Positions 3,195 to 64,000 of a stretch of 64,000 bases of DNA are shown here, one piece after another (position 1 is the first letter of the stretch; each line of letters starts with the position of its first letter). Source of the DNA: Pseudofulvimonas gallinarii (GTDB taxonomy: Bacteria; Pseudomonadota; Gammaproteobacteria; Xanthomonadales; UBA2363). The stretch covers positions 127,501 through 191,500 of the forward strand of contig NZ_SMAF01000006.1 in the NCBI RefSeq assembly GCF_004343305.1, read 5' to 3'. Made by a program: the position numbers and the translations under genes. The notes below the pieces were generated by a model that was not told the DNA's origin, searched no databases, and saw only the letters and a program-made list of their open reading frames with translations.

Positions 3195-3222
3195 GGCGGG
3201 TCTCTCCTCGATGGGTGAATGG

Positions 3223-4896: not shown

Positions 4897-4925
4897 GGCA
4901 AGGATTTCCAGTGCGGAACGAGGAT

Positions 4926-7315: not shown

Positions 7316-7375
7316 CGCCATTCCTCCATACAGGTCTGTCAACCAGCCGATGCATCCGTTGACACAGGGGTGGAA

Positions 7376-7870
7376 CTAGTCGCATCCGGTCCAGGGATTT
7401 CCGCACGCACTTCCGGGCGGCATCCAGCCACGCAACACCGGGTTGTCGATCTCCGTGCCAGTGACGGGCAGCTCGACTTCCACCCAGTCCTCACGGCAGC
7501 CCGCCAGGGGAAGGTCGATGGCGAACAGTGAAATGTCGATCGTTTCCGACGTCCGACCGGCGCGCTGGTGCACCTTGTACTTCCGTGGCGGCCGCACCGC
7601 CAGTTTCACGGCGGGGACCCAGCCGCTGCCGGTGAAGGCTTCGCTGCCACGCGAGTCCACGGCGTGCACGACCCGCGTCCACTCGCCGCTGTGTTCGACC
7701 ACCGCGAAAACCGTCCGTCCGGGGTCTGCCGGCACGGTCGCGATGGAGGCGAAATCGTTGCCGGGGCCACTACGGACCTCGATGGCCGTTTCCGGGTCCA
7801 GGGAGAAGGCGTGGATGTCGCACGAGGTGGCGGCATGCGTGGGCGGACACAGGCACGCCAGCACGATCAC
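7376..7870 (-). CDS. secreted SH3b-like hypothetical protein, paralog 1 (start uncertain)
   Basis: Track ORF 7376..8065(-). Mature-like region ATSCDIHAF...GWVPAVKLAVRPP...GWMPPGSACGNPWTGCD is paralogous to 8014..8550. Only a GTG start is plausible in front of the hydrophobic segment IVLACLCPPTHA; the long ATG-initiated N-terminus is not signal-like. Confidence 0.4.
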   Translation of the reverse strand: MIVLACLCPPTHAATSCDIHAFSLDPETAIEVRSGPGNDFASIATVPADPGRTVFAVVEHSGEWTRVVHAVDSRGSEAFTGSGWVPAVKLAVRPPRKYKVHQRAGRTSETIDISLFAIDLPLAGCREDWVEVELPVTGTEIDNPVLRGWMPPGSACGNPWTGCD

Positions 7871-8013
7871 GACACGGGCGCCGGCGCGGGCGGCCGCGAT
7901 GCCCGGCGACCATGCAGCATGTCGGCAGGACGGGGAGGGCCCGTTCCGCGTATCCGCTGGCCATCGGCCCGGGAGAAACCGCCTTGGCTGGAAGGCCGTA
8001 CCGGGTACGCCGT

Positions 8014-8550
8014 TCACATGCAGTCCTCCCAGGGGCTGCCGCACCAGCTGCCGCGGGGAAGCCATCCTTCCAGATCTTCGCCGCCGCGCACGGGGACGAC
8101 GATCTTCATCCAGTCATCCGAACAGGCGAGCAGGTTCACGTCGAGCTCCGCCCTGAGGCTGCCGAGTACCTCGCTCTTCCGGTCGGGAGAGGCGTGAAAC
8201 GGAACCAGGTCATCGTGCGGATCGATGGTGCGCACGGCGAGCTGCGGTGCATGTATCCAGCCGGCGCCATCGAACACGCGCGTCCTGGTTGCATCGACAG
8301 CCGACGCCACGTTGATCCAGTCCTTCCTCGCGCCCTTCAGCAAGACCAGTGTTCCTCCAGGACTCGGTGGCAGCTTGCCCACGATGGGCGACGAGACATC
8401 GGCGTCGGCATGGATCTCGACCGTTCCGTAGGGATTGGCGACGAAAGCGGCAACGTCGCATTCCGTTGCCGACTGCGCCAGCCCGGGAACCGCGAAGGCC
8501 GCCAGCAGCAGCGGACGCGGGGAGCGCTTACGGGTGTGTTCGTTCATGGA
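8014..8550 (-). CDS. secreted SH3b-like hypothetical protein, paralog 2 (178 aa)
   Basis: Internal start MNEHTRKRSPRPLLLAAFAVPGLAQS (signal peptide) with CAGGAGA RBS. Carries ATECDVAAF...GWIHAPQLAVRT...GWLPRGSWCGSPWEDCM. Its ATG overlaps the stop of the upstream lipoprotein gene (ATGA). Confidence 0.55.
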   Translation of the reverse strand, partial: SMNEHTRKRSPRPLLLAAFAVPGLAQSATECDVAAFVANPYGTVEIHADADVSSPIVGKLPPSPGGTLVLLKGARKDWINVASAVDATRTRVFDGAGWIHAPQLAVRTIDPHDDLVPFHASPDRKSEVLGSLRAELDVNLLACSDDWMKIVVPVRGGEDLEGWLPRGSWCGSPWEDCM

Positions 8551-9155
8551 GTCTCCTGGAGGCGATGTGCCGTGAAAGTACCGCGGACGCTTCCATCGGC
8601 ATCGGCAATGTCGATTTCCGCAGAGACTTCCATCGCGGCTGCCGGCAGGATCCGCACCAGGCCACTGGCCTCGCGGCCTCCCAGTAACGTGACCGAATCC
8701 CGACCGTTCCTGTAACGGGCGATGAGCACCGTGCCGACCCTGTTGAAAGGCGTCGACGCCGGCCTGTACTCGCCGGGCCGGATCGGGGCATCGGCAGGCG
8801 TGTCCATTCCGGCCTCGATCTGTATGTCCACGCGGAACTGCCCGGGCGAGTGGATCCTTCGGAAGTCCTCCAGCCCCGCCCTGGCCGCCTGCAGGTCGTA
8901 GTTGGCCAGAAGGATGCGGTGGACGGTGGCGGGTACGCGCTCCTGCGGGTTCGCGATGGCCGCGTCCGTCAGGACCAGGTTCTTCCGGTAGGTCGAGAAC
9001 GTCGCGTAGGTCGGTTCGAACGGGACGGCTTCGCCATCGAAATTCAACGTGATCGCCGGCGGCCCGTCTTGGCCGGACTGGCCGGGACGGGGGCTGTCGG
9101 CACATCCGGCAAGCAGCGCCGACAGCATCATCGCCTTGACGGTTGACCGTTTCAT
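8544..9155 (-). CDS. lipoprotein, hypothetical (203 aa)
   Basis: Track ORF 8544..9230(-). Internal start MKRSTVKAMMLSALLAGCADSP carries a lipobox LAGC. No recognised domain. Confidence 0.5.
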   Translation of the reverse strand: MKRSTVKAMMLSALLAGCADSPRPGQSGQDGPPAITLNFDGEAVPFEPTYATFSTYRKNLVLTDAAIANPQERVPATVHRILLANYDLQAARAGLEDFRRIHSPGQFRVDIQIEAGMDTPADAPIRPGEYRPASTPFNRVGTVLIARYRNGRDSVTLLGGREASGLVRILPAAAMEVSAEIDIADADGSVRGTFTAHRLQETP

Positions 9156-9165
9156 CCGGCGCCGG

Positions 9166-10023
9166 TCACACGTCGCTGGCAACGATTTCGGCGTCGACGA
9201 GCCTGACCTGCTGGCCCAACGCGCCGTCAACCCGCCCCCGCACCAGATGAACGCGATCCGGCACCGCCAGGTCCTCGCCCGGCGCCGCCCGCAGCTGGAC
9301 GAAAACGCCCTTGCGGTGGGTGGCCGTATCCTGCAGTTCGATGTGATGGATCGTGCCGCTGTCGACCTGCGACGTGGTCCAGCCGTTGAAGTAACCGCGG
9401 ACCGTGACTTCCTGTCCGATCAATCCCCGCATCGCCGCTTGCAGGTCGTCCACCCGCACGGGAGTGGTGGCCGGGAGGCTGTCCGCCTGCAGCGGTTGTG
9501 GCGCCGGTGGCGGAAGACCATCGGCGTCACCGATGCGCTGGCAGTCTTCCATTTCGACATGGTCGGCAACGGTTCCGGTGATCCGGCCGCGAACAAGGAT
9601 GACGCGGTTGCGAGACAGCGGCTCTGCATCCGGCGCCGCCATGTTGCCCTGGAGCAGCCCCGGCTGGGTATCGGACTTCCCCGGCTCGATGTGCAGCCTC
9701 ACGGTCCGCTCCAGCGGGTCGTTGTCGAAGAACAGCATCGGGTAGCCCGCCACCACAACCTCCTTGCCGGTCCAGCCGAACAGATGGTCGTGCAGTTCCT
9801 GCACCTCCCAGGGCCGGGGCTGCGATGGCTGTGACATGTCTGACTCCTGGCTGGTCTGGGCGCCGGTGACCCGGGAAGTGATGGCAAGGCTGGCGGTCAA
9901 ACCCGGCGCATGGGCCAGGGTTGACGGATCGCGCGCGGGCGCGGACGTCGCCGTCGCGAGCAGGAGGGCTGGCGCCAGCAATGCGGGTGAAGCCAGGCGG
10001 AGGCGGGAACAGGAAGTGGGCAT
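9166..10023 (-). CDS. secreted hypothetical protein with two internal repeats of about 90 aa
   Basis: Track ORF 9166..10521(-). Internal start MPTSCSRLRLASPALLAPALLLATATSAPA (signal), GGAGA upstream. Two homologous modules: VQELHDHLFGWTGKEVVVAGY...RVILVRGRITG and VDDLQAAMRGLIGQEVTVRGY...RVHLVRGRVDG. Confidence 0.5.
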   Translation of the reverse strand: MPTSCSRLRLASPALLAPALLLATATSAPARDPSTLAHAPGLTASLAITSRVTGAQTSQESDMSQPSQPRPWEVQELHDHLFGWTGKEVVVAGYPMLFFDNDPLERTVRLHIEPGKSDTQPGLLQGNMAAPDAEPLSRNRVILVRGRITGTVADHVEMEDCQRIGDADGLPPPAPQPLQADSLPATTPVRVDDLQAAMRGLIGQEVTVRGYFNGWTTSQVDSGTIHHIELQDTATHRKGVFVQLRAAPGEDLAVPDRVHLVRGRVDGALGQQVRLVDAEIVASDV

Positions 10024-11056
10024 TGGACAGGATCTCCGTTCGAGGGTCGTGTCCTGCGGCGTTCGCAGGTGCACCGTCCGGAATCGCGGTAGCGGCGAGG
10101 GGACAGGCGGCGTCAAGGTAGGCCGGGGAGGGACACCCGGGTCATGACCGGGACGTGACCGGATCCTGACCGCTCGTGATCCGGCGCCGATTGCCAGGGC
10201 GACTGCCTGGCTGATTGCCCGTGAGCCGTCATGGCAGGCGCAGCCGGGGCGGCTGCAGGTGCCGGCGGAGACCGAGGCTCCGGCTGGTGGCGATTCTGTC
10301 GCAGCCCGGCCGTTGTGCCCGGCGTTTGCTGCAGTGATGGCGGTGGCAAGTCGTATGGGTGTGTCGCCTCGACCTACGCGGGATGGGCCCTGTCGACGGT
10401 GGGCATGTTGGGGCTGGCGCCAACCGCGCTTGGATGGGCCCGCGGACCCGAGTGGATTGACACGGTGGACTGCGTCGAGCACGACAGCCGCCCGGCCGGG
10501 GGACGCCCATGGACCATTCAACCAGGAACGACAAGGATCCCGCGCCGTCGCCTGGGCCCCTGCGCCAGGGCACTTCCGGCATTGCTCAACGTGGGCGCGG
10601 CCATGGCGAATACGAAGCCGGTCGGCGCGCCGACGCTGGTGATGCCGCCGGAGCAGGCCGACACGATCCCCGAGCCACCGCCGCGACCTGGGTCATGGAG
10701 ACGCCAGGCCGCTACAGCGTCGGCAATGTGACGATGCTGCCCCGTCCCAAGGGCGGCGCCCGGCTGGATGGGGACCCCCTGCCGCTGTACCTCCCGGATT
10801 CCTCCAACGAGTGCAAGGTGCAGAAATTCTTCCGCCGAACGCACCCTGGATTGGAAACGGCGCAAGGCGAGTGTGTGCCTGACCGTTCCGGACCCGAATC
10901 GAGCAGATAGCCTCATGAAGCAGGTATGTCCTCGTGGTGCGGGTGCGCCGTCCGCCGAAGCGCAGCTGCAGCGCGAGGCGTCTGCTGCAAATCACTACGT
11001 GGCCTACAATCGGGCTCCACCGGCGCTTTGAGGACGCTGATGCGAGCGAGGTCACG

Positions 11057-16154: not shown

Positions 16155-16763
16155 ATGAAAACCAAGCGTTCAACAACTTCCGCAGCCACGCCCGGTTCAG
16201 TCCGGATCATCGCCGGCGAGTGGCGGGGACGGAAGCTGGCTGTTCCCGACCTGCCCGGCCTGCGGCCGACGCCGGATCGCGTCCGCGAGACGCTGTTCAA
16301 CTGGCTGATGCCGGTCAGCGAGGGTGCGCGCTGCCTCGACCTGTTCGCCGGCACCGGCGCGCTTGGGCTGGAGGCGGCGTCGCGAGGTGCGGCCGAAGTG
16401 GTCCTGGTCGAACGCGACCGCGGCGCCGCGGCGGCGCTGCGCGGGCATGTCACGCGCCTCGGCGCCGGCCAGGTCCGGGTCGAATGTGCCGACGCACTGC
16501 AGTGGCTGGACCAGCCGGCGACATCCCGTTTCGATGTCGTCTTCCTCGACCCGCCGTACGGCGCCGACCTGCTCGCGCCGGCCTGGAGGCGTCTTCGCGA
16601 CGGCGGCTGGCTGGCACCGCAGGCGTATGTCTACGCCGAATGGCCGGCAGGACAGCCGTCGCCGATCGACCTTCCTCCCTGGCGCAGCGGCCGGGCCGGT
16701 CAAGTCGCGCACGCGCTCTACCGCTGCCTGCCCGCGACAGTGCCGACCGGTGCCGGCGCCTGA
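16155..16763 (+). CDS. rsmD: 16S rRNA (guanine966-N2)-methyltransferase RsmD
   Basis: Track ORF 15618..16763(+). Start [28 protein letters not shown]; motifs [19 protein letters not shown] and VFLDPPY. Divergent from ftsY as in E. coli. Confidence 0.85.
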
Positions 16764-18231: not shown

Positions 18232-19949
18232 ACCTCTTCCGTCCGCTCCGGCACTTCGCCCTGCTGGCAGTCCTCTGTGCCGGTGCCGTCCATGCCGCGG
18301 GCGATGGCGCGCCGCAGGGATCACAGGCGACCGCCACGGCGGCCGTGCCCGGCAGGACGGCGATCGCCAGCGCGCACTTCCTGGCGACCGAGGCCGGCCA
18401 CGAGATCATCGCCGCCGGCGGCAACGCCTTCGACGCGGCGGTGGCGGTCGCCATGGCCCTGGCCGTGGTCGAACCGTCCAGCTCCGGTATCGGCGGCGGC
18501 GCGTTTTTCCTCCTGCATCGCGCCAGCGATGGCAAGGACGTGTTCGTCGACGCGCGCGAGGTCGCGCCGGCGGCGGTCAGCCGCGACTGGTATCTCGACG
18601 ACGCCGGCAATCCGGATCGTGACCGCAGCGTCAACGGTCCGCTCGCTGCCGGCATTCCCGGGCAGCCGGCCGGCCTGGTATGGCTGGCCGAACACTATGG
18701 CCGCCTGCCCTTGGCGAAGTCGTTGGCCCCGGCGATCAGGCTGGCGTCGGAAGGCTTCCCGGTCGATGAAAAATACCGCCAGCTGATCGGCATGCGCGTC
18801 GAGGCGCTGCGTCGCCATCCCGATGCCGCACGCCAGTTCCTTGTCGCCGGCGAGATGCCCGAGCTGGGCCACGTCATCGTCCAACCCGATCTGGCCAGGA
18901 CCATCGAGCGCCTCGCCGAGCGCGGTTTCGACGGTTTCTACAAGGGCACCACCGCGCGTCGCCTCGTGACCGGCGTCAACGAGGCCGGCGGCAGCTGGAC
19001 GCTCGACGACCTGTCGAACTACCGCGTCAAGGAGCGCGAGCCGATCCGCCTGCGCTACCGCGACCACGAGATCGTCACCTCGCCGCCGTCCTCGTCGGGC
19101 GGCGTCGTCATCGCCCAGATCCTCAACATCCTCTCGGTGTGGGACCTGAAGAAGATGACGGCGGTGCAGCGCGTGCACCTGGTCGTCGAGGCCATGCGTC
19201 GCGGCTACCGGGATCGCGGCATCTACCTGGGCGACCCGGATTTTGTCGAGATGCCGCTGGCGATGCTGCTCAGCCCCGACTACGCCGCCGGCCTGCGCGC
19301 CTCGATCCGCCTCGACCAGGCGACGCCGAGCTCCATGCTGCCCGGCAGCGACAACGCGCCGCGTGGCACCGACACCACGCATTTCTCCATCATCGACGCC
19401 GACGGCAACATGGTGTCGGCGACGTTGAGCGTTAACCTGCCATATGGTTCCGCTTTCGTGCCACCGGGTACCGGCGTGCTGCTCAACAACGAGATGGACG
19501 ATTTCGCGCTGGTCGCCGATGCGCCGAACGCCTATGGCCTGATCGGTCGCGAGGCCAACGCCCCGGCCGCCGGCAAGCGCATGCTGTCGTCGATGACGCC
19601 GACCTTCGTGCGTGGCCCGGACCGCACGCTGGTGATCGGCACGCCCGGCGGCAGCCGCATCATCACCATGGTTCTGCTGGGTGTCCTGGAATTCATCGAC
19701 GGCGCCGATGCCAAGGGCATCGTCGGCACGCGCCGCATCCACCACCAGTACCTGCCCGACGTGATCTCGGCCGAACCGGATGCGCTGGCCACGGAAACCG
19801 TGCACGCGCTGGAGGCGATGGGCCACACCGTCGATGCCGGTCGGCGCGAGTGGGGCAACATGCACGTGGCGATCTGGAACCGCGCCAGTGGCGAGCTCGA
19901 GGCGGCCTCGGACCCGCGCAGCGAATCCGGTCGCGCCATCGTCCGCTGA
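18228..19949 (+). CDS. ggt: gamma-glutamyltranspeptidase
   Basis: Start MNLFRPLRHFALLAVLCAGAVHA (signal) overlaps the yfhL stop (ATGA). Catalytic Thr region TTHFSIIDADGNMVS and GGSRIIT. Confidence 0.9.
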   Translation: MNLFRPLRHFALLAVLCAGAVHAAGDGAPQGSQATATAAVPGRTAIASAHFLATEAGHEIIAAGGNAFDAAVAVAMALAVVEPSSSGIGGGAFFLLHRASDGKDVFVDAREVAPAAVSRDWYLDDAGNPDRDRSVNGPLAAGIPGQPAGLVWLAEHYGRLPLAKSLAPAIRLASEGFPVDEKYRQLIGMRVEALRRHPDAARQFLVAGEMPELGHVIVQPDLARTIERLAERGFDGFYKGTTARRLVTGVNEAGGSWTLDDLSNYRVKEREPIRLRYRDHEIVTSPPSSSGGVVIAQILNILSVWDLKKMTAVQRVHLVVEAMRRGYRDRGIYLGDPDFVEMPLAMLLSPDYAAGLRASIRLDQATPSSMLPGSDNAPRGTDTTHFSIIDADGNMVSATLSVNLPYGSAFVPPGTGVLLNNEMDDFALVADAPNAYGLIGREANAPAAGKRMLSSMTPTFVRGPDRTLVIGTPGGSRIITMVLLGVLEFIDGADAKGIVGTRRIHHQYLPDVISAEPDALATETVHALEAMGHTVDAGRREWGNMHVAIWNRASGELEAASDPRSESGRAIVR

Positions 19950-53014: not shown

Positions 53015-56000
53015 TCACTCCTTCGTGCGCTGGCGGCGGCGGGCGACGCGCTCGGCGATGTCGGCGAGGGCGCGGCGTTCGGCGGACAGGGGTTCATCGC
53101 GGCCGCGTGGCGTGGAACGGGCGGGTGCTTTGCCCTCGCGAGCGGAAGCGCCGGCAGCCGGCCTGGCCGTGTCAGGTTGTCCGGAACCGCTGCGGGTGCC
53201 TGGCGCGCCTCCCGCCTGCGTGGTGCGGGCAGGCGGGGCGACGGCAGGGGCTGCAAGGAGCGATCGCGCTTCAAGGCGCTCGAACAGGCGTTCGGTCATT
53301 TTCGCGGTGATCAGTTGCAGTTCCAGCTGGTCGTCGTCGTTGTCGCGCAACGCTTCGGTGAGCGGCGCCAGCGCCTTCTCCAGCGCCAGCCGCAGGCCGG
53401 CCAGCATGCGCGTGTCGGGACGGGCCGATGGGGACGGCGCCTGCGCCTGCAAGGGCACCGTGCCGCGTTCGCCGAGCAGCCGTTCCAGCTTCGCGAGGAT
53501 GTCCTGCCACGGTACGTCGCGGGTGGCGGCATCCCGGACGCCGCTGTCGAGCCCGCGCACGCCTTCGACGAGGTCGACCAGCTGCGCGACGACGCGGTCG
53601 CCGACTTCGGCATCGTCGCCGCCCATCGCCTTGTTGCGCAGGAAATCGCGCTTGATCTGCGCCCAGCGTGCGGTCTGCTCCGCGTCCAGCGTGCCGCGCA
53701 GTTCGGCGAGCTTGAGCAGGTTTTCCTCGGCGCCGGTGGTCAGCAGCTGTGCTTCGCCGCGATAGTGGTCGGCGATCAGCTGGTCCAGCTCGGCGGCATT
53801 CATCACCGGCGCGATCTTCTCGGCTAGCTTGTTCATGTTGCGGTAGCTGCCCTGCAGCTTGAACGGCGGCTCGGTGCGGTAGCGGTCCGCCTGCGCTGCG
53901 CTGGCGATGTACTGCTGGTTGACGCGATAGACGATCTCGCGCACGGCGAGCATGCGTTCCAGCACGGCGGAAATCTCGTTGATCTCGGCGCCGCTGTAGG
54001 CATGCGACAGGCTGTTGGCCGAGAAGGCGCGGCCTTCGACCTTGTCGACAAAGCGGTAGACGTCGTCCATCGGCCGCGTCGCCAGCGGCGCCAGCACGGC
54101 GTTGGAGGTCAGGCTGTTCTCGATGTAGCTGAGCTTGAACGCGTCTTCCATGCCGCCGAGCACGTCGCCCAGGTTGTAGATGTCGGCGCGGTTGGCGAGC
54201 ATGTCGGGAATCCTGAAGACTTCGCCGGATTCGGTGTACGGGTTGCCGGCCATGACGACGCAGAACTTGCGTCCGCGCAGGTCATAGGTCTTGCTCCGGC
54301 CCTTCCAGACGCCTTCGATGCGGCGGGTACCGTCGCAGAGCGAGATGAACTTCTGCAGGAACTCCGGGTGCGTGTGCTGGATGTCGTCGACATACAGCAT
54401 CACGTTGCTGCCCATCTCCAGCGCCAGGTTGAGTTTCTCCAGCTCCTGCGCCGAGGTGGCGTCCGGTGCCTGCGCCGGGTCCAGCGAGTGCACCTCGTGG
54501 CCCAGTGCCGGGCCGTTGATCTTCATGAACACCAGGCCGAGGCGATGGGCGACGTACTCCATCAGCGTCGTCTTGCCGTAGCCGGGCGGCGAGATCAGCA
54601 TCAGCAGGCCCATCAGGTCGCTGCGCTTGTTCTCGCCGACCGTGCCCATCTGCTTGGCCAGGTTGTCGCCGATGATGCCGAGATAGACGTCGTTGATCAG
54701 CCTGTTGCGCACGAACGAGCTGAGCGGTCGCGGCTTGAACTCGTCCAGGCGCAGGCGCTCGCGTTCGCGCGCGACGATGTCGTGGCGCAGCTGCTGGAAG
54801 CGCTCCCAGCCGGGCAGGAAGCGCGTGCGGTGCGCGTGCAGGCGGGCATCGAAGTCGTCCACGGCCAGCGCCATCGCGCCGTCGTGGATGCGGGCATGGT
54901 CGCCGAGCAGGCCGGTGACATCGACGCGCAGGTCCACCTGGCTGATGCGATGCGCCAGCGACGCGGGCCACAGCTGCAGGGCGACGGCTTCGTCGATGTT
55001 CGGCGCCAGGACGGCATGCGTCGCATCGGCACACAGCGCCAGAAGCCAATGGCGCACCAGCGCGACGGCTTCGCCCGGGCGCTGGCCGGCGTCCTTCAAG
55101 GCCTGTTCGTAGTCGTCGCGGACGTGCGCCTGGTCCAGCCGCGCGTGCAGCGCGTCCAGCAGCTGTCTTGCCGCGGCGGTGAACTGGAATTCCGGATGGT
55201 CGGCGGAGAGCTCGGCGACCAGGTAGGACGCCGCGCGCCCCGGGTCGGCGGCACCCAGCGGCAGCGCATGCGTATCGGAGAACCGCTGCAGTCCGGTGGC
55301 GATCTCGGCCTGCAGTTCTTCCAGCGCCTGCCGCTGTCCGAGCAGGCGCGCGATGTGCCGTGCATTGCGGGCGCGGCGCGGCCACTGCGCAGCGTTGTCG
55401 TCGGCCTGCAGAAGCGGCCAGGCCATGCACGCCAGCGCCCGTGCCGCCGGCTCGTGCACCAGCACGCCGGCCTGGTCGTAGAGCGGCAGCACCGCCTTCA
55501 GGATCAGCGACGCGTCGTGGTCGTGGATACCCTTCTCGTAGCCGTCGCGGTACCGCGCGGCGGCGAAGTCGCGCACCAGCCGCAGCAGCTCCTCCGGCTG
55601 GCTCAGGTTCCGTCTCAGGCCGTCGAGCGACAGGCCTTCGCGTTCGGCGCGTGCGGCGGCGAGCACTTCGCCGGCCAGGTATTCGCCGCGATACAGCGTC
55701 GGCGATTCCGACGCCAGGCCAACCGACCAGTAGTCGCGCAACGCATCCAGCGCCGCATCCTCGATCGGCTCGAAGTAGTCGGTGCCGGTCAGGTGCAGCG
55801 CGAGGTGGTCGCCACGCGGCAGCAGGGTGAGATCCAGCTCCTGCGTGTTGACGCTGAAACGGTGGCGGGGTCCGAGGCGGATGACGTCGCCGCCGCCCTC
55901 GAACAGCTCGCTGCGGTCGCGCAGGGCACGAACGGCCTGGTCGCGCGCGCCCTTGAGGCGTGCCTCGACATCGTCGGCGCGGACGTTGTCCTTGAGCTCG

Positions 56001-58480
56001 CGCAGGCGCACCGCCAGTTCGCGCAGCTTGAGGATCAATGCGTCGCCGGCGAAGAAGGCGTTGAGTTCGTCGCCGTCCTTCAGGCGCGCGGTACGCCGCG
56101 GCAGGCCGTCGATGATGCGCCGGGCGGCATCGAACACCGCGACCGCCTTGCGCTGGCGGTCGTCAAGCAGGGCCTGCTTGTGGGCGTCGAAGGTGTCGAG
56201 CAGTTCTTCGCGCTTGGCGAGGATGTCGGCCAGGAACTGGTCGTGCTCGCCGAACTGGCTTTCCAGCTCTTCCAGCTGCACCAGCAGCCGTGACAGCTGT
56301 TCGTCGCAGCGCTCCGGATCGGTGGCGCTGGCCAGTGCGCCGGCAACGCTCTGCCCGAACAGGGTGAACTGGGCGCCGAACTGCGCGACCGCCTCGCTCG
56401 AACCCATGCTGCGGCGGCGCTGTTCGGCGCGCGCCTTGGTCTGGTTGAGGCGGGCATACAGCGCTGACAGCGCGTCGACCACGCGCGTGCGCTCGGTGGC
56501 GTCCTCGACGCGCAGGCTGGCCATCAACTCGGACAGCATGTCCAGGTCGCCGGCCATGGCGGCCATGGCCTGCAGCGGCGCCGCCAGCTGTGATGTCGTC
56601 GCCGCCGCCTGTGCTTCCCGGTCGAGCGTTTCCAGTCGCGCGTGGAACGGCTGCAATGCGGTGTCGCTGGCCAGGAAAGTGCTGGTCGCGGCGCCGACGC
56701 GTTCGTGCCCGGCGATGATGTCCGCTTCCATAGCGTCGATGGCCGCGGTGTCGATGTAGCGCAGCTCGCGGATGCTGAGCAGGTGGCCGCGCTGGCGGTT
56801 CAGCGCCGACAGCGCATCGACGAATTCCTGCGCTTCGCGCCAGTCCTCGGGCCGCAGGCTGGCCAGCAGTTCCTGCTGGCGCGTCTGCGCCTGCGCCATC
56901 GCACGAGACGACTGCCGACGGATGTCCTCGACCTTTTCGTATTCGTCGAGCACCGCCTCGCTGGTGGCGGCGATGTCGCGGACGACGGCGCCGGTGTCGC
57001 CGCACTCGCGGTCCGCCAGCCAGTGGTGCAGGTCGAACAGCCGCTTGCTGGCCTGCGCCAGTACTTCGTAACGCTGCAGCGAGACGTCGGTGGCCTCGAT
57101 CCCGCGTGCCAGGCTGTACAGGTCGGAGATGCCGCGCACCAGTTCGGCGTTGCCGATGCGCGCCATGAACCCGGTGCCGGCCGGTTGCGCGGCGGCGTAT
57201 TCGTCGCTGTGGAAAGGCGTGCGCCACACCTGCATCGGATGCACGCGTGTCGGCTCGTCGCTCTCGGCGCTGAAGACGACCATGCGGCCGTCGTCCAGGC
57301 GCGCGTAGCCGTGGCCGAAGATCGGTGTCTGCAGCGCGCGCTCGATCAGGTTGTAGGTGAACAGCGCGGTGCGGCCGGACTGCGGCTCGAAGAAGATGTA
57401 CAGCACGTCCTCGCCGTTCGGCGAGCGGATGGCGCGCTTGAAGCGCATGCCGTCCATCGACTGCTCGAAGCGCTTGCTCTCGCCGTTCTGCAGGTAGTAG
57501 CCGCCGGGGAAAACGATGCCGTGGTCTTCCGGCAGCTGGATGCAGGACTGGCCGATGGCGTCGATGCGCTCGACCTTGCGCGTCAGCGTGTTGAAGACCA
57601 GGTGGCGCCACTGCGTCTCGCGGTAGGGCAGTACGCGCAGCAGGATCAGGCTGCCGACGCGGGCGAACTCGATTTCGGCGTCGTCCAGCGACTGCGTCTT
57701 GTCCTCGACCGGTTCGCGATAGACGCCAAGGCCATCCTCGGTGTTGTCCTCCACCTTGATGGTCAGGTCGCCGCCGATGGTCTCGACGAATACGCTGTCG
57801 AGGATGTTGATGTGTGGATGGCGGCCGTTGACGGCCATCTCGCGCGTCGTCGGCGTCCACTCGAAATCGAACGGCGCCGGCAGCGCGATGTCGCGCTCGC
57901 CGCGGTTGTCGATGTAGCGGACTTCGCGGCCATCGACAGAGACCGACCAGCGGAACACGCGCAGGTCGGTGATGCGCTCGCCGATCTGGAACGCCGCCAG
58001 CAGCTTGCCGTCGCGCACCGCCAGCCGCTGCAGGCGCGTGTCCTTGTAGTAGGCGTACAGCTCGCGGAAATCGTTGACGAAGCCGGGCGCGTCGAGGAAA
58101 GTGCCGGCCAGCTCGACCGCCGCCACCTCGTAGCCGTCGTCGTCGCCCGGTACCAGCCGGTACAGCGAGAAAACGTCGCCGACCTGGGTTTCCTTCTTCA
58201 GGCCCAGGAAGACGTTGTAGCCGAACACCATCAGCTCGCCGACCTGGACGATGTCGCGGGCGACGCAGTTGTGTTCGGTACGCACGCGCACGCGCGCCAC
58301 CACCTCCATCGCGCTGCTGCCGAATTCGGCAAGGCGACGGCTGTTCAGTCCATCGGCCAGCGCACGCAGCCGCTGGCCCTGTTCGGCCAGGCGGCGCGCC
58401 AGCACTTCGTAGGCGCCGCCTTCGGCGACGGCGCGGTCAACGGCCGAGGTGTCGGTGCCGGTTTCGGTGGTGTCGGTCAT
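53015..58480 (-). CDS. giant (1821 aa) protein with a single MoxR/dynein-type AAA+ ATPase module, in operon with flotillin and an NfeD-like gene
   Basis: Walker A LISPPGYGKTTL (encoded about 54566-54590), Walker B VMLYVDDIQH (about 54373-54396), sensor-1 CVVMAGNPY, Arg region RIPDMLANRADIY. About 1250 aa N-terminal with no motif I recognise; Ala/Pro/Arg-rich C-terminal tail. Lies 35 bp downstream of the flotillin gene on the same strand. Confidence 0.8.
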   Translation of the reverse strand: MTDTTETGTDTSAVDRAVAEGGAYEVLARRLAEQGQRLRALADGLNSRRLAEFGSSAMEVVARVRVRTEHNCVARDIVQVGELMVFGYNVFLGLKKETQVGDVFSLYRLVPGDDDGYEVAAVELAGTFLDAPGFVNDFRELYAYYKDTRLQRLAVRDGKLLAAFQIGERITDLRVFRWSVSVDGREVRYIDNRGERDIALPAPFDFEWTPTTREMAVNGRHPHINILDSVFVETIGGDLTIKVEDNTEDGLGVYREPVEDKTQSLDDAEIEFARVGSLILLRVLPYRETQWRHLVFNTLTRKVERIDAIGQSCIQLPEDHGIVFPGGYYLQNGESKRFEQSMDGMRFKRAIRSPNGEDVLYIFFEPQSGRTALFTYNLIERALQTPIFGHGYARLDDGRMVVFSAESDEPTRVHPMQVWRTPFHSDEYAAAQPAGTGFMARIGNAELVRGISDLYSLARGIEATDVSLQRYEVLAQASKRLFDLHHWLADRECGDTGAVVRDIAATSEAVLDEYEKVEDIRRQSSRAMAQAQTRQQELLASLRPEDWREAQEFVDALSALNRQRGHLLSIRELRYIDTAAIDAMEADIIAGHERVGAATSTFLASDTALQPFHARLETLDREAQAAATTSQLAAPLQAMAAMAGDLDMLSELMASLRVEDATERTRVVDALSALYARLNQTKARAEQRRRSMGSSEAVAQFGAQFTLFGQSVAGALASATDPERCDEQLSRLLVQLEELESQFGEHDQFLADILAKREELLDTFDAHKQALLDDRQRKAVAVFDAARRIIDGLPRRTARLKDGDELNAFFAGDALILKLRELAVRLRELKDNVRADDVEARLKGARDQAVRALRDRSELFEGGGDVIRLGPRHRFSVNTQELDLTLLPRGDHLALHLTGTDYFEPIEDAALDALRDYWSVGLASESPTLYRGEYLAGEVLAAARAEREGLSLDGLRRNLSQPEELLRLVRDFAAARYRDGYEKGIHDHDASLILKAVLPLYDQAGVLVHEPAARALACMAWPLLQADDNAAQWPRRARNARHIARLLGQRQALEELQAEIATGLQRFSDTHALPLGAADPGRAASYLVAELSADHPEFQFTAAARQLLDALHARLDQAHVRDDYEQALKDAGQRPGEAVALVRHWLLALCADATHAVLAPNIDEAVALQLWPASLAHRISQVDLRVDVTGLLGDHARIHDGAMALAVDDFDARLHAHRTRFLPGWERFQQLRHDIVARERERLRLDEFKPRPLSSFVRNRLINDVYLGIIGDNLAKQMGTVGENKRSDLMGLLMLISPPGYGKTTLMEYVAHRLGLVFMKINGPALGHEVHSLDPAQAPDATSAQELEKLNLALEMGSNVMLYVDDIQHTHPEFLQKFISLCDGTRRIEGVWKGRSKTYDLRGRKFCVVMAGNPYTESGEVFRIPDMLANRADIYNLGDVLGGMEDAFKLSYIENSLTSNAVLAPLATRPMDDVYRFVDKVEGRAFSANSLSHAYSGAEINEISAVLERMLAVREIVYRVNQQYIASAAQADRYRTEPPFKLQGSYRNMNKLAEKIAPVMNAAELDQLIADHYRGEAQLLTTGAEENLLKLAELRGTLDAEQTARWAQIKRDFLRNKAMGGDDAEVGDRVVAQLVDLVEGVRGLDSGVRDAATRDVPWQDILAKLERLLGERGTVPLQAQAPSPSARPDTRMLAGLRLALEKALAPLTEALRDNDDDQLELQLITAKMTERLFERLEARSLLAAPAVAPPARTTQAGGAPGTRSGSGQPDTARPAAGASAREGKAPARSTPRGRDEPLSAERRALADIAERVARRRQRTKE

Positions 58481-58515
58481 GCGCTGCGATGGTCAGGCCA
58501 CAGTCGGGAATCGGC

Positions 58516-60423
58516 TCAGCCAGCCGAGGCCTGGTCGCCGCCGCCCTTCAGCGACAGCAGCTTGGCGAGCAGGTCCTGCACCAGCGGGCTCTTCCCTGCG
58601 ACGCCTTCGATGGCCTTGCCGACCGACAGCGACTTCGCGAACGAATTGAAGAACTCGCCCTCGCCGCCGACGATGTCGATCTTCGCCTTGCTGAGCGCCG
58701 CGGCCAGCACTTCGGCCTGCTCGCGCGCGACTTCCTTGTTCGCGGAGATCGCCGCCATCGCCTGCTCGAAGGACTTCTCCAGCTGCATGCGGAACTCTTC
58801 GTGGCCGCGCGCCTGCTCGCTCATCGCGTCCATGGCGCCGAACTTGTCGGTCAGGCCCTGCGCCTCGGCGCGGAACTTCTCCAGCAGCACCTCGGCCTCG
58901 GACAAGCCGATCTCGCGGCCGGCCTTCGCCTGGGCCGAGCCCAGCTGTTCCTCGCCGCGCGCCTGTGCGACCAGCTTTTCCTCCATGACGCGGGCTTCGG
59001 CCAGGCCTTCCTTCTCCAGCGCCTGGGCGCTGACCTCGCGCACGCGCGCGTCGGCCAGGCCCGGCGCGGCGCGCTCGGCCTCGATGCCTTCGGCCAGCTT
59101 CTTCTTCGCCTCCGCCTGCTTGGCGGCCGCTTCCAGTTCGGCCTGGGCGATGACCGTGATTTCCACCGCCTTGTGCTTGGAGCGGGTCTCGTCGGCTTCG
59201 GCCTGCTTGACCTGCTTGACCAGTTCCTCCTCGGCCGCGGCCTGCGCCTCCAGGATGCGCACTTGCTTCTGGCGGTCGGCCTCGGAAACTTCGCGCACTT
59301 CCTTGATGCGTTCCTCTTCCTGGGCGACGGTCTTCTCGACCGCGACACGCTCGCGCACGACGTTGGCGATCAGCTTGCGCTGCTCTTCCAGCGCCTTCTC
59401 CTTCTCGATCCGCTGCAGTTCGACCTCGCGCTCACGGGCGACCACTTCCAGCTCGCGGGCGCGGGATACCTTCTCCATTTCGATGACGACGGCACGCTGG
59501 CGGTTCTGTTCGGCGACCTCGACTTCGCGCTTGCGGTTTTCCTCGCGGATGTCCAGCTGCTCCTGCGTGGCGATGCGCGCCTGCTCGGCCTTGAGGCGTT
59601 CCTCTTCCTTGACGCGCAGGGTTTCCGCTTCCTCGCGCGCGCGGATGGTGTCGATCTCGCGCTTCTGGCGCGCCTCGGCATCCGCCTGCTGGCGCTCCAG
59701 GGCCAGCATCGCTTCGCGCGTCTCGACGTTCTTCTTCTTGATCGCCAGCTCCTCGTTGCGCTCCAGCTCGTTGGTGATGACGTTCTGGGCCGCGGTCAGC
59801 TCGGTGATCTTGCGGATGCCTTCGGCATCGAGGATGTTGCTCGGATCCAGCGACGATTTCGGCGTCTGCTCGAGGTAGTCGATGGCGACGTCTTCCAGCA
59901 CGTAGCCGTTGAGGTCGTTGCCGATGACCTGGACGATGCGGTCGCGGAATTCCTGGCGGTTCTCGAACAGCTTCACGAAGTCGATCTGCTTGCCGACCGT
60001 CTTCAGCGCCTCGGAGAACTTGGCGTTGAACAGCTCGTTCACCGCCCCCTTGTCGGAGGCGCGATCGACGCCGATCGACTTGGCGACCTTGAGCACGTCC
60101 TCGGCGGTCTCGTTCACGCGCAGGTAGAAGGCGACCGTGATGTCGGCGCGCATGTTGTCGCGGCAGATCAGCCCGTCCTTGCCACGCCGGTCCACCTCCA
60201 GCGTGATCAGGGAGATCTTCATGAACTCCTTCTTGTAGATCACCGGATAGACCAGCGCGCCCGTGAAATGCACCTTGGGCGTGGAGGACATGTCGTTGAC
60301 GATCAGCGCCGTGCCCTGCGGGACCTTGATGTAGAAGGCCTTGAAGAGGGCGAAGAAGCCGATCAGGACCAGCAGCAGGATGCCGATACCGATCAGGAAC
60401 GGCATGAGGGTGGCAAGGCTCAT
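58516..60423 (-). CDS. flotillin-family SPFH/Band-7 protein (YqiK-like), 635 aa
   Basis: N-terminal TM LIGIGILLLVLIGFFALF; SPFH domain; long E/A/R/K-rich coiled-coil (the flotillin EA repeat region). Confidence 0.85.
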   Translation of the reverse strand: MSLATLMPFLIGIGILLLVLIGFFALFKAFYIKVPQGTALIVNDMSSTPKVHFTGALVYPVIYKKEFMKISLITLEVDRRGKDGLICRDNMRADITVAFYLRVNETAEDVLKVAKSIGVDRASDKGAVNELFNAKFSEALKTVGKQIDFVKLFENRQEFRDRIVQVIGNDLNGYVLEDVAIDYLEQTPKSSLDPSNILDAEGIRKITELTAAQNVITNELERNEELAIKKKNVETREAMLALERQQADAEARQKREIDTIRAREEAETLRVKEEERLKAEQARIATQEQLDIREENRKREVEVAEQNRQRAVVIEMEKVSRARELEVVAREREVELQRIEKEKALEEQRKLIANVVRERVAVEKTVAQEEERIKEVREVSEADRQKQVRILEAQAAAEEELVKQVKQAEADETRSKHKAVEITVIAQAELEAAAKQAEAKKKLAEGIEAERAAPGLADARVREVSAQALEKEGLAEARVMEEKLVAQARGEEQLGSAQAKAGREIGLSEAEVLLEKFRAEAQGLTDKFGAMDAMSEQARGHEEFRMQLEKSFEQAMAAISANKEVAREQAEVLAAALSKAKIDIVGGEGEFFNSFAKSLSVGKAIEGVAGKSPLVQDLLAKLLSLKGGGDQASAG

Positions 60424-60450
60424 CGAAGGTTCTCCCAGCAGTTTTTGGGG

Positions 60451-61083
60451 CTATTCGCCCTGGAAATCGGTGTCGAGGGCAACGCGCCATGCATTGTCCG
60501 GCGTGAGGTGTTCGAGCAGCACCACGCGGTCGCCGCGGCGGGGTGTCTCGCCCTCGCAGCGCACCTGTACGATCAGGCTGGCGCCGTTGTCCTCCAGTTC
60601 CGCCTGCCCGTGCGAGGCGGTGACTTCACCGGTGCGCACGATGGCGACGCGACCAAGCAGGCTGCGGTTCGGCGGCGGCGCCAGGCGGCGCTTCAGGCGC
60701 GTCAGTGGCCGCACCACGGCCGCCGTCATCGGCAGCGACAGGAACAGCGCCACCGGCAGCACGATCGCGCCCAGCGTGATGCGCAGCCAGTCCGGCAGGT
60801 GGTTGAGCAGCAGCAGGCCGGTGAAATAGCTCAGCACCCATGCAATGAAGATCAGGATGGTGAAGACCAGCGTGGTCGGAATGCCGCCCAGGCCGAACTT
60901 GACCAGGAAGCCGGCCAGGCCTTCCATGGCGCCGACGTCGCCGTCGATGACGCCGGCCAGCTCCAGCGGGTCGTCGCCGACCAGGCCCAGCGCCGCCAGC
61001 ATCCAGTAGGCGACGGCCACGGCCAGCAGCACGCTGAGGATCGCGGTGGGGAAACTCAGGGCGGTAAGGAGGAATTCCTGCAT
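60451..61083 (-). CDS. YqiJ/NfeD-like membrane protein with C-terminal OB-fold
   Basis: About 4 TM helices, then RVAIVRTGEVTASHGQAELEDNGASLIVQVRCEGE...GDRVVLLE (NfeD-type OB beta-barrel). Lies 27 bp upstream of the flotillin gene. Confidence 0.7.
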   Translation of the reverse strand: MQEFLLTALSFPTAILSVLLAVAVAYWMLAALGLVGDDPLELAGVIDGDVGAMEGLAGFLVKFGLGGIPTTLVFTILIFIAWVLSYFTGLLLLNHLPDWLRITLGAIVLPVALFLSLPMTAAVVRPLTRLKRRLAPPPNRSLLGRVAIVRTGEVTASHGQAELEDNGASLIVQVRCEGETPRRGDRVVLLEHLTPDNAWRVALDTDFQGE

Positions 61084-61477
61084 GGACAGCCTTCTTGTCG
61101 GGTCAGGGGTCCGGCGCGTCCGCGTCCGTCGGCGCAGCGTGCGTCGGCAGGGCGGATCACAGGGATTCCCAGCTTAGCGCAAGCCCGTGCGCCGTTTCCG
61201 GCGGTATCGTGCCAGCTTGGCACCTCTCAAGCGGAAAAAACGCGGCCACCGTGCCACGCCGGATCACGGGCGGATTCACACGCCGCTGCAGATGCCTCGC
61301 AGGCCCGCAAATGAACATATGCCGCCGGGTCCCGCCTGCCGCGTGATGCCCACTTTGCCCCATCCGCCTGCCACGACGCCTGGCACCCGGTCCAGCCAGG
61401 CCTGCCAGCCGCCCGTGCTTCCACAACGACGCGGCATCGTATGATCGTGCCGATGTGGGCGCGGATCAATAACGGCA

Positions 61478-62050
61478 ATGCGAAGCCAGCGGTCGCCATC
61501 GCGGTGGGTGGCGGTACTGCTGCTCGCCGCGCTGGCGAAAGGCGCCGGATGCCGCGCACGCACGGACGCGATGCTGCGTGGCGAACCCGGACTGATCCTG
61601 GCGGACTTTGCCGAAAGCTACGAGCTGCGGGCCGACGAGGGCTTCCGCATGCCCGAACTGATCGAGCCGGCCTCGATGCCGACGCTGGCACTGCCGTCGG
61701 CGCAGCAATCCATGAACGCCGACAATGCCCCGCAGACCTTCGTGTGTGTGGAGCTGGCGATTTCCGAAAACGGCGAAGTCATCGGGCAGGAGTTCTTCGA
61801 CGATGCCCGATACTGTCCCGCTGATCCTTCCGGATTGACCGACGCGCTCCAGCGCGCGGTGCTCGATGCGACCGCCGCGTGGCGCTTCCGCCCCGCTGCC
61901 TTCTGCACCGCCGATGCCATGGACCCGGACATCGATCCCTGCGGCGAGCCCGGCGCGGTCATCGAACCGGTCGGCGTGAAGCTCGCCTTCGTCTTCGCGT
62001 TCGAGGCCGAAGACGGGAATCTCGCCTCGACGGTGGTGCCTCTGGATTGA
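61478..62050 (+). CDS. secreted hypothetical protein (190 aa)
   Basis: First in-frame ATG after a stop. MRSQRSPSRWVAVLLLAALAKGAGC is a signal-like N-terminus. No strong RBS. Confidence 0.4.
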   Translation: MRSQRSPSRWVAVLLLAALAKGAGCRARTDAMLRGEPGLILADFAESYELRADEGFRMPELIEPASMPTLALPSAQQSMNADNAPQTFVCVELAISENGEVIGQEFFDDARYCPADPSGLTDALQRAVLDATAAWRFRPAAFCTADAMDPDIDPCGEPGAVIEPVGVKLAFVFAFEAEDGNLASTVVPLD

Positions 62051-62855
62051 CGCCGCGGCGGTTGGGACTCTGCCACGCATCGCTGTTTTTCCTTGCAGCC
62101 ATCGCGTCCGGCGCAACGAAGGGGCGCGGGCGTGCTTTTCCTTGAAGAGCCGTCGTTGTCTTGCGAGAAAAGCAGGAACGACGGGTTTCAATCGGTCGGT
62201 CGGGCGCGGCAGTGGCCTCTCGGTCGTTGCAGTTATTCTTGCCGCCCCCGGTCTTCCGGAGCGGTGTGTCCAGACGGGCAGCGATCAGCTCAGGTGCCCA
62301 TCACGCCGCGGCAGCACTGCGCCGCTTGATGGGCCACACGCTTCATGGCCACGACGGTTCCGACGGGAAGTTGAGCAAACCAGGCGGCAAAGCCCGCCCA
62401 CCTGACCGAGGGCGGCGCGTTGGGCCGCGAGGCGGCGCTGAACGGTCGTGACCATGTGGGTGGCGCCGGCAGGCAGCGCGGCAACGTCAGTACGGATCTT
62501 GCCTCAGTTTCGCGGGCGCGCCGTAACCGCCGATATCTCCGCGCCGAAGGCAAACCGGATGGGCCGCACACAGTGCATCCCGTCATGTTTCCAGCGCAAC
62601 CTCGGCGAACCTCGTCCAAAAGCCTGGGCTGCGCCTGCGCAGTGAACGACCCTGTTATGGCCGTGTCGTCGCGGTGATAATGCATAACACTGCACCCATG
62701 CCGGATAACACCAGCAACTCGCGGTATGGCAAAGCCGTCCGCGTCGTCAAATGACATTGATTCCCTTGGTGATTTTCTGATTGACGTCACCTGTCGCGGT
62801 CAGCTACAACAGGCGCTACACCCCACTTCGGGGTCGAATAGTAGTTAGGCAGCAA

Positions 62856-63332
62856 ATGAAGATTGCCCCCGTCCTCACAGTCTTTCTCCTGTTCTGTGCG
62901 TCCCTCGGGGATGCGCATGGCCGCGAGGAACGGGACGACACGCTGTGCGCTGAAGTTAAAGCGTTCTTGGCGTCCGTAAAACCTGACGCGACGCGCTCGG
63001 TCACCTTTCGAACGTTCTGGGGCGCCAGGGAAGAAGGAGACAACATCATCCTTGGCTCAAAGACCTGCGAGCACCACGACTACGATCCCGGAGAAAAGCT
63101 GTGTGCCTACCTGATTCAGGATAGTTCCACAGAGTTCGCAGGTTACAACGCCAAGCGCATCCTCAACTGCCTCACGCCAAGGCAGGGGATTGCGGCAGCC
63201 CTGGACATTCATAGCGGATCGTTCTCAATCACCTTTGGCTCGCCCAGCCGAGGCGCGTTAGTAGACCTAGAGCTGGCGCCAGACGAAGGTCGTGAAGAAA
63301 TGAAGCTTATCCTTAAGGCAGATGGCTACTAG
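62856..63332 (+). CDS. small secreted hypothetical protein in a low-GC cassette-like context (158 aa)
   Basis: Signal MKIAPVLTVFLLFCASLGDAHG. Local GC about 50% against about 68% in the rest of the window. ATG lies 6 nt after GTTAGGC (GTTRRRY core-site-like). Confidence 0.5.
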   Translation: MKIAPVLTVFLLFCASLGDAHGREERDDTLCAEVKAFLASVKPDATRSVTFRTFWGAREEGDNIILGSKTCEHHDYDPGEKLCAYLIQDSSTEFAGYNAKRILNCLTPRQGIAAALDIHSGSFSITFGSPSRGALVDLELAPDEGREEMKLILKADGY

Positions 63333-63338
63333 GCTGCT

Positions 63339-63398
63339 GCCTAACCATTCATTCAAGCCGACGTAGCTTCGCTACGCGGCTTAATTCAAGCGTTAGAC
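63339..63398 (+). repeat. attC-like (integron recombination site-like) 60-bp imperfect palindrome
   Basis: GCCTAAC (RYYYAAC) ... AAGCCG-a-CGTAGC-ttc-GCTACG-CGGCTT ... GTTAGAC (GTTRRRY). Outer 7-mers are near reverse complements. One unpaired base in the left arm (an extrahelical-base-like feature). Starts 7 nt after the stop of the preceding ORF. Confidence 0.45.
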
Positions 63399-63426
63399 CT
63401 CACTACAGACAACAGGAGAGTTCGAT

Positions 63427-63891
63427 ATGCGTAACATCCTCTTCGCACTTGTAGTTGTAGCTACTTCCGCAATGCCGAACACGTCTCAAGCATGTGACTG
63501 GACTACTGGTGCTCGCGAGCAGCACGTCTTTCTGTCCTGGGACGGTAAAGCGGTTACGGACTGGGTCGTTGCTTCTGACTCCATTAAAGCCGTCACTTTG
63601 CCCAACGGATTTGCTCTTGGCGTCAAGATCGAAGAGCCTGAACCGGAGAAGTACGTTGAGCTCTCAAACAAACTGCAGCATGTGCCGGAGACGGTAAAGA
63701 TCAGCTTGTTTGACCTAAGCAATGGCAAGCCCCGACCGTTGACACACACGTATGGTGGCACCAACTCTCTACAAGGCTACGGTGCGCAGGGCGGCGCAGA
63801 CCGGGTTGATGAGTTGGGCACCCCGGGAGTCTTACTCACCTTGCTCAAGCCAGTGTGCTCACAGCAGGGTGCTGTCGCTTCCGCGCGGTGA
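63427..63891 (+). CDS. small secreted hypothetical protein in a low-GC cassette-like context (154 aa)
   Basis: AGGAGAG RBS. Signal MRNILFALVVVATSAMPNTSQA. Low GC. Confidence 0.55.
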   Translation: MRNILFALVVVATSAMPNTSQACDWTTGAREQHVFLSWDGKAVTDWVVASDSIKAVTLPNGFALGVKIEEPEPEKYVELSNKLQHVPETVKISLFDLSNGKPRPLTHTYGGTNSLQGYGAQGGADRVDELGTPGVLLTLLKPVCSQQGAVASAR

Positions 63892-63892
63892 G

Positions 63893-64000
63893 GTCTAACA
63901 ATTCGTGTATGGACTCCCCCGTCAACCCCTGACGGCATCACGATGTGAAGCGCCAGCTTCACGGCTTTTGATTCTGCATTTTCCATCCTGCTGACGCTCT
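63893..64000 (+). repeat. second attC-like site (left end only; continues past window end)
   Basis: GTCTAAC (RYYYAAC) 2 nt after the ORF2 stop, followed by hairpins CCGTCA-acccc-TGACGG and GTGAAGC-gcca-GCTTCAC. No GTTRRRY end found before position 64000. Confidence 0.3.

Follow-up and report, generated by a model that had tools for sequence, protein, structure and literature searches.

The end of the 64,000-nucleotide stretch of Pseudofulvimonas gallinarii DNA analysed here (assembly GCF_004343305.1, contig NZ_SMAF01000006.1; the whole stretch is called the window) has a lowered guanine-plus-cytosine (GC) content and carries two small open reading frames (ORFs). These features raise the question of whether the ORFs are gene cassettes of an integron and, if so, to which part of the integron they belong. 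An earlier reading of the letters (the original prediction) had proposed an array of integron cassettes bounded by attC sites and running off the window. It left open whether this array was a cluster of attC sites lacking a nearby integrase (CALIN) or the far end of a chromosomal integron of the kind found at ilvD in Xanthomonas. When we read positions 60500–64000, the listed ORFs, the 7-mers, the 60-bp palindrome and the ribosome-binding site were all located, and the core of the proposal (integron gene cassettes bounded by attC) turned out to be correct, as judged by a covariance model, by likeness to the aadA7 attC site and by cassette swaps. Our data suggest, with a probability of about 0.9, that a sedentary chromosomal integron starts in this segment with its attI-proximal end, and that its integrase was lost. 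The host is placed in the Lysobacterales in the NCBI taxonomy.

The GC content was 68.0% over positions 1–62585 versus 55.5% over 62790–64000, with 300-nt minima near 51%. The proposed drop from 68% to about 50% at about 62.8 kb is real, but it is smaller than stated and begins earlier, since composition and homology place the shift near 62586, some 200 bp upstream of 62790. Sequence past position 64000 was taken from contig JBHMFH010000001.1 of assembly GCA_042427495.1 (L001), positions 1–10574 of which correspond exactly to window positions 53427–64000. Another assembly (L007) shows 99.97% identity, with a contig break inside the insertion sequence (IS) described below.

The 60-bp element between the two ORFs

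On the bottom strand, an attC site forms a hairpin that has R and L boxes and in which a G and a T stay extrahelical, and the tyrosine recombinase IntI cuts this hairpin between the G and the TT. The element downstream of ORF1 (attC1, 63339–63398, + strand) is an intact 60-bp site with R'' at 63339–63345 (GCCTAAC, 6 nt past the ORF1 stop codon), R' at 63392–63398 (GTTAGAC) and a 3-nt terminal loop. Its palindrome reads AAGCCG-a-CGTAGC-ttc-GCTACG-CGGCTT, and R'' and R' are complementary at six of seven positions. The extrahelical bases are C16 and A23 on the top strand, which correspond to G and T on the bottom strand; both bulges and the 3-nt loop were seen in the folding check that had been proposed for this element. 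Folding as single-stranded DNA gave −13.3 kcal/mol for the top strand and −14.1 kcal/mol for the bottom strand (z-score about −4), and none of 200 shuffled sequences was equally stable. With a script we counted 17 RYYYAAC and 22 GTTRRRY 7-mers on the + strand of the window. They form two composites with a spacing of 47–140 nt, and only the one at 63339–63398 folds well.

As a substitute for the attc_4.cm model of IntegronFinder, a covariance model (R1) was purpose-built from six other attC sites, with attC1 excluded. Here, attC1 scored 74.7 bits (E about 2e-22) on the + strand versus 20.8 bits on the − strand, and the next-best match in the 64 kb reached 12.9 bits (E 0.64). Over 68 nt it shared 88% identity with the attC site of the class 1 integron cassette aadA7, and 4416 plasmid records matched attC1, with the matches located directly 3' of annotated cassette genes. 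When seven attC sites were aligned with a hand-drawn structure of R boxes, L boxes and stem, 96.7% of the cells were paired and six pairs were compensatory, which was reached by none of 500 shuffles; both bulged columns were invariant. Moreover, the bottom strands of the reconstructed attC2, attC3 and attC4 sites and of a 90-bp attC site from a metagenomic cassette folded with the same two bulges (z-scores of −4.2 to −6.9). Because four independent lines (covariance score, aadA7 likeness, compensatory pairs, shared bulged folds) agree, we conclude from the sequence comparison that 63339–63398 is a true attC site. An Rfam scan of 60000–64000 and of L001 9000–20465 returned chance matches or none, and no family for the attC sites or for the candidate seekRNA region discussed below.

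attI and the integrase remnant at the head of the array

Positions 62587–62850 are homologous to the attI site and the 5' end of intI of two intact integrons, with nucleotide identities of 81% (L010, E 1e-65) and 84% (L098). L010 was located by searching metagenome contigs with the 23-mer that immediately precedes the crossover point. It carries an intact integron integrase (TIGR02249, 464.7 bits versus a cut-off of 265), the same junction, a cassette and an attC site invaded by an IS. The second intact integron, L098, shares the same left breakpoint, and the N-terminus of its IntI matches the remnant in the window at 24 of 28 positions; both integrons adjoin ubiA. When the L010 IntI was used in tblastn, residues 1–75 of its long upstream ORF, which begins 47 codons ahead of the likely ATG, matched 62826–62602 on the − strand (65% identity, E 7e-23). 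The usual length of Lysobacterales IntI is 335 amino acids (aa). The stump in the window (62587–62685, − strand) comprises about 33 codons from the ATG at 62685 (MHYHRDDTAITGSFTAQAQPRLLDEVRR...), it contains one frameshift, and the intI homology stops at about 62587. A match to the peptide PRLLDEVRR was first taken as chance, and this judgement was reversed once L010 had been found. No IntI N-terminus identical to the stump was present among the top 120 matches of the IntI search; the best one agreed at the 24 of 28 positions given above.

The intI–attI intergenic region together with attI occupies 62686–62850 (+ strand). The crossover lies between G62844 and T62845 of GTTAGGC (62844–62850), which is located 5 nt upstream of the ORF1 start codon, and the GTT is preceded by the conserved core GGCGCTACACCCCACTTCGGGGTCGAATAGTA. 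Five loci share the sequence up to this GTT and then diverge into different cassettes. The 21-mer attI core matched nothing in genome_contigs, a collection without the source species. Thus, the array is headed by an attI site, and its cassette junction falls at the GTT that is also used in the intact relatives. A functional intI gene, in contrast, is absent beside the array, and apart from the roughly 33 codons with their frameshift, neither the window nor the next 10 kb or so (L001 to 20465) showed any IntI similarity. The earlier statement that no intI is visible in about 1.7 kb of upstream sequence therefore holds for a functional gene, but it had missed the remnant at 62587–62685. Since 62587–62850 is homologous to attI and to the first intI codons, the array appears to be the proximal start of a decayed integron and not its far end, as had been suggested.

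A candidate cassette promoter (Pc-like) is found at 62781–62810 (+ strand). It consists of TTGACG, an 18-nt spacer and TACAAC and is directed into the array. Its hexamers are kept in L010 (TTGACG/TACAAA) and in L098 (TTGACT/TACAAC), and the spacers have diverged.

An integrase-less array was also observed in L096 (positions 5622–6916, Logan SRR31357812), in which a homologous attI core, located 380 bp after a phasin gene, is followed by at least two cassettes, the first of them of the ORF1 type. It seems that the attI core has outlasted the loss of the integrase more than once.

Cassettes and cassette exchange

The first gene cassette (62845–63392, + strand, 548 bp) consists of ORF1 (62856–63332, 158 aa) and attC1. 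Only the 5' part of the second one lies in the window (63393–63906, + strand); it comprises ORF2 (63427–63891, 154 aa) and the first 14 nt of attC2. An AGGAG Shine–Dalgarno sequence is present 8 nt upstream of the ORF2 start codon (63414–63418), and the 7-mer GTCTAAC (63893–63899) follows 1 nt past its stop codon. Both proteins have signal-peptide-like N-termini and no assigned function.

Two metagenome contigs of close relatives (L002, L003) are 100% identical to the window over 61883–62846 (964 bp), and yet they carry another first cassette. After the shared ...GGGGTCGAATAGTAGTT, this cassette contains ORFs of 64 and 102 aa and a 90-bp attC site, and it is followed by the ORF2 cassette. The similarity to the window stops at the GTT and picks up again at GCGTTAGAC. 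Behind a different upstream cassette the ORF2 cassette is 99.7–100% identical in L002–L005. In L096 and L097, too, the position next to a homologous attI core is taken by a cassette with an 80%-identical ORF1 homolog. Over its full length this cassette is 81% identical; the stem of its attC site differs, and the structure is preserved. Stenotrophomonas has a more distant ORF1 homolog with a decayed attC site beside it, and no attC site was seen near an ORF2 homolog in Marinicella. These comparisons indicate that the cassettes are discrete mobile units with junctions between the G and the TT. The first cassette varies among strains in which stump and attI are identical, and attI has thus been a site of cassette turnover.

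The window and L002/L003 differ solely within 61290–61882, in or near a lineage-specific 190-aa gene (61478–62050). A recent sweep, or recombination that involved the integron head, may account for the 100% identity of the next 964 bp, which include stump and attI.

It is conceivable, although we consider it rather doubtful, that the orphan attI is still a live docking site, at which cassettes were exchanged after the deletion of the cis-encoded intI by a compatible IntI supplied in trans from another genomic locus or from a transient mobile element. We retain this idea because strains that are 100% identical in the stump, in attI and in the 964-bp flank differ in their first cassette. If it holds true, an integrase-less platform would keep evolving.

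An IS1111-attC-group element in attC2

The 7-mer after ORF2 does start a genuine attC site, as had been suspected, but this site is split by an IS from 63907 on, and the last 94 nt of the window belong to the IS. They represent the first 94 nt of an element of the IS1111-attC group (63907–64000, − strand), i.e. its non-coding end downstream of the minus-strand transposase gene (tnp), and the element runs off the window. One terminator-like hairpin was called at 63944–63963. The complete element is 1553 bp long and is present in L001 in three copies, which are one or two single-nucleotide polymorphisms apart and each of which sits inside an attC site. In the window, the 14 nt with which attC2 starts (GTCTAACAATTCGT, 63893–63906) are followed by the IS (GTATGGACTCC...), and the remainder of attC2 (TCAAGCCGAACCC...) picks up at L001 13363. 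An uninterrupted attC2 (GTCTAACAATTCGTTCAAGCCGAACCC) is found in L003; the two sequences differ by exactly the IS, and there is no target duplication. The bottom strand of the reconstructed 112-nt attC2 has a predicted folding energy of −31.5 kcal/mol (z-score −6.9).

The 12-bp subterminal inverted repeats of the IS (ATGGACTCCCCC) lie 2 nt and 7 nt from its ends. Its transposase is of the DEDD type (PF01548 and PF02371) and matches NF033542 (IS110 family RNA-guided transposase) with 313.6 bits. It is 47% identical to the transposases of ISKpn4 and ISPpu25 and 70% identical to that of the IS in L010, a 74%-identical relative which also sits in an attC site. Judged by these transposase identities, the element would count as new by the usual ISfinder criterion and is probably unnamed. 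The insertion point ...TTC(R)T^TCAAGCC is common to the three copies, to the L010 relative and to ISKpn4 and ISPpu25, and tnp is oriented opposite to the cassette genes; ISKpn4 and ISPpu25 occupy the same attC position in the same orientation in clinical class 1 integrons.

ISKpn4 and ISPst6 are attC-targeting elements of the IS1111 family, the target choice of which depends on a seekRNA encoded downstream of tnp (PMC11187229). Just past the end of the window, in the non-coding region downstream of tnp, we found the motif GCATTCGTGTATTCGGCTT (L001 about 10604–10625), with the core ATTCGTGTATTCGGCTT (about 10606–10625). In this motif, ATTCGT corresponds to the target flank on the left, GTAT to the end of the IS and TCGGCTT to the right flank in complement, and the base that matches the IS end (G/A) covaries with that of ISKpn4 and ISPpu25. 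Because this conserved non-coding motif mirrors the target and the IS junction, target choice is presumably RNA-guided via a seekRNA.

In L004 (positions 1083–1314, JGI 3300051379), another element (CATAAGGAAACTCCTGTCAACTGCGG...) was observed in the same attC2 site, two nt upstream of the insertion site of the 1553-bp IS. This suggests a second type of attC-targeting IS in the same population.

The array beyond the window

Extension past position 64000, which had been recommended as a check, revealed further ORF–attC units in L001. Altogether, the array comprises at least five co-oriented promoter-less cassettes, which carry ORF1, ORF2, a 112-aa ORF, a Phd/ParE toxin–antitoxin pair and a DUF6998 ORF, respectively. 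Cassettes one to four each have an attC site of the Xanthomonadales/aadA7 type as their boundary. In the fifth, an IS256 fragment cuts in at the stop codon, and no attC site was seen for it. Thus, L001 9913–18727 contains four attC sites, three of which are IS-interrupted, and no IntI was found from window position 1 to L001 20465. The readable sequence past the last attC site amounts to 1.7 kb. With this stretch covered, the locus has the two or more attC sites without an intI within about 4 kb that define a CALIN. The CALIN call of the original prediction fits in this respect: no functional intI is nearby, and software would report the locus as such.

The central 40 nt of attC3 and attC4 (TTCAAGCCGACGCCGCTTCGCGGCGCGGCTTAA...; L001 15365–15396 plus 16485–16499 and 18680–18726, respectively) do not differ from the aadA7 and aac(6')-IIa attC sites of clinical class 1 integrons. 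Additional IS elements have entered the array. A 1318-bp IS256-family element is nested within the first copy of the 1553-bp IS (copy A; L001 12011–13328) and has an 8–11-bp direct repeat (CGTGTGGCGA...), and attC3 contains an IS630-family element at a duplicated TA. An inverted 155-bp fragment of the IS256-family element (L001 19183–19337) forms the end of the array and abuts the stop codon of the DUF6998 ORF. The arrangement may be a sign that IS256 mediated a deletion or inversion, by which additional cassettes may have been lost. The array is followed, in L001 19340–20465, by an arsH-like pseudogene (NADPH-dependent FMN reductase, PF03358, 2e-32, internal stop), which is truncated by the fragment, and then by divergent arsR (HTH_20) and arsC (LMWPc) genes.

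The part of intI beyond about 62587 has been deleted, and attI and some 33 codons are left. By the mechanism known for integrons, cassettes would be excised as circles and re-inserted at attI, and their expression would be driven from a promoter in the attI region. As there is no integrase in cis, any present movement would need an IntI supplied in trans. The 1553-bp IS has entered three of the four attC sites seen, without target duplication, and separates R'' from the rest of attC2, attC3 and attC4 by 1.5–2.9 kb. Since the IS-split sites probably cannot fold, cassettes 2 to 4 are probably locked in place. Of the four sites attC1 alone is intact, and for this reason only cassette 1 should still be excisable.

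Weighing of alternative explanations

A CALIN may also be seeded de novo, when an integrase acting in trans inserts cassettes at a chance GTT of a secondary site (attG), and in this case the locus would never have been an integron. Xanthomonas often carries CALINs outside the canonical locus (PMC12444791), the syntenic position is free of integrons in related Lysobacterales, and no functional intI was found in 62 kb upstream or 10 kb downstream, all of which would fit such an origin. However, a chance site is not expected to be preceded by 264 bp which are 81–84% identical to attI and the first intI codons of two intact integrons and which share a sharp breakpoint with them, and we therefore consider de novo seeding improbable. 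Even less probable is a large Xanthomonas-type integron linked to ilvD, of which the window would show the distal end and the intI of which would lie outside the window. The Xanthomonadales type of the attC sites and the position of the host in the Lysobacterales agree with it, but the cassettes read away from the stump at 62587–62850, which marks this end as the proximal one, and the array ends after five cassettes at the IS256 fragment and the ars cluster. An ilvD-type locus, as invoked by the original prediction, is further contradicted by the gene content, since none of the 10 long window ORFs tested was an ILVD_EDD protein and the intact relatives adjoin ubiA.

A match of the low-GC segment to a phage or an IS had been named as the finding that would speak against cassettes. 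Such cargo, with the hairpin as a terminator or as a repetitive extragenic palindrome-like repeat, might be suggested by the IS elements that are plentiful just downstream and by the terminator-like hairpin at 63944–63963, and for the last 94 nt the segment is indeed IS. The rest is not, and no phage genes were found. The IS elements are inserted into attC sites and are not carriers of them, as the empty site in L003 illustrates, the hairpin between the ORFs matches attC(aadA7) and the attC covariance model in a strand-specific manner, and Rfam finds nothing. This explanation is hardly credible and the least likely of the three.

Several observations weigh against a decayed integron that begins at attI. 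The identity of the stump rests on homology to two metagenomic integrons, and the Pfam and NCBIfam profiles missed it when run on the three minus-strand frames of 62040–62852. Of the whole genome, the search for intI covered the window and L001 up to 20465. The difference in the first cassette could stem from homologous recombination between strains and not from IntI activity after the deletion. A strict sigma-70 consensus scan called no promoter at the Pc candidate, and L096 fits the candidate poorly. The seekRNA assignment relies on a short motif just outside the window. Finally, the case is comparative throughout, and recombination and expression are what we infer from it. Nevertheless, the attI-proximal start of an integron that lost its integrase is the explanation we prefer.

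Upstream flank

The 535-bp GC-rich stretch between the 190-aa gene and the intI breakpoint (62051–62586) contains no convincing ORF. It has no recognisable homology: Pfam returned nothing in any of the six frames, and a homolog was lacking from 80 related loci. The upstream neighbours are the lineage-specific 190-aa gene, an NfeD-like gene and a flotillin-like gene. The 80 loci came from a synteny search for the flotillin-like neighbour, and none of them had an IntI or the 190-aa gene nearby. Tyrosine recombinase matches with 31–35% identity in Pseudomonas and related loci were rejected as probably Xer-type and not IntI. Further upstream, window 53015–61083 encodes an 1821-aa DUF3686/DUF7902/AAA protein, a 635-aa flotillin-like protein and a 210-aa membrane protein, and is itself preceded by a UvrD-type helicase gene; this DUF3686/flotillin-like/membrane gene trio is conserved across Lysobacterales, Pseudomonas and Comamonadaceae.

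Comparison with known systems

The locus is a known kind of element, since arrays, decayed integrases and IS1111-attC insertions have already been described (PMC12444791, PMC11187229), and it leaves the current understanding unchanged. What it adds is a new instance, a decayed chromosomal integron in Pseudofulvimonas, a little-studied genus of the Lysobacterales which is covered by neither of these two papers. In addition, the metagenome contigs provide three pairs of before and after states: a swap of the first cassette at attI, an empty versus an IS-occupied attC site, and two IS types in the same attC site. The locus would thus be convenient for studies on the freezing of arrays by IS1111-attC elements and on attI activity without an integrase.

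With the sedentary integrons of Xanthomonas and other Lysobacterales (PMC12444791), and with CALINs in the IntegronFinder sense, it shares the type of the attC sites, the promoter-less co-oriented cassettes mostly of unknown function, a toxin–antitoxin cassette, the inactivation or loss of the integrase and the presence of IS elements in the array. CALINs and decayed intI genes were described in Xanthomonas in the same paper, and the IntI of the intact relatives is of the 335-aa Lysobacterales type. In contrast to the Xanthomonas type, the P. gallinarii locus is not located beside ilvD, and its intact relatives lie beside ubiA. Moreover, intI is cut here to about 33 codons by a deletion with no recognisable homology on its far side.

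The attC site of the aadA7 cassette, as well as those of aac(6')-IIa and related cassettes, resembles attC1 in its length of 60 bp, in the layout of R'', L'', L' and R', in the same two bulges and in the 3-nt loop. Two base pairs in the stem of attC1 differ from those of the aadA7 site by compensatory exchanges (one from CG to UA, the other from CG to AU). The near-identity of the attC sites to those of clinical aminoglycoside-resistance cassettes is consistent with an origin of such cassettes from a Xanthomonadales pool. The cargo of the P. gallinarii array consists of secreted-looking proteins of no assigned function, whereas the aadA7 type carries resistance genes, and the array is chromosomal, whereas class 1 cassettes reside on Tn402/Tn21-type elements.

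Elements of the IS1111-attC group were reportedly treated by Tetu and Holmes in 2008 and by Post and Hall in 2009. With the members of this group (ISPst6, ISKpn4, ISPpu25, ISPa25) the 1553-bp IS shares the DEDD/IS110 transposase, the subterminal inverted repeats, the lack of a target duplication, the insertion site in attC and its orientation, and the conserved non-coding motif downstream of tnp. It differs from ISKpn4 and ISPpu25 in its transposase, which is only 47% identical to theirs.

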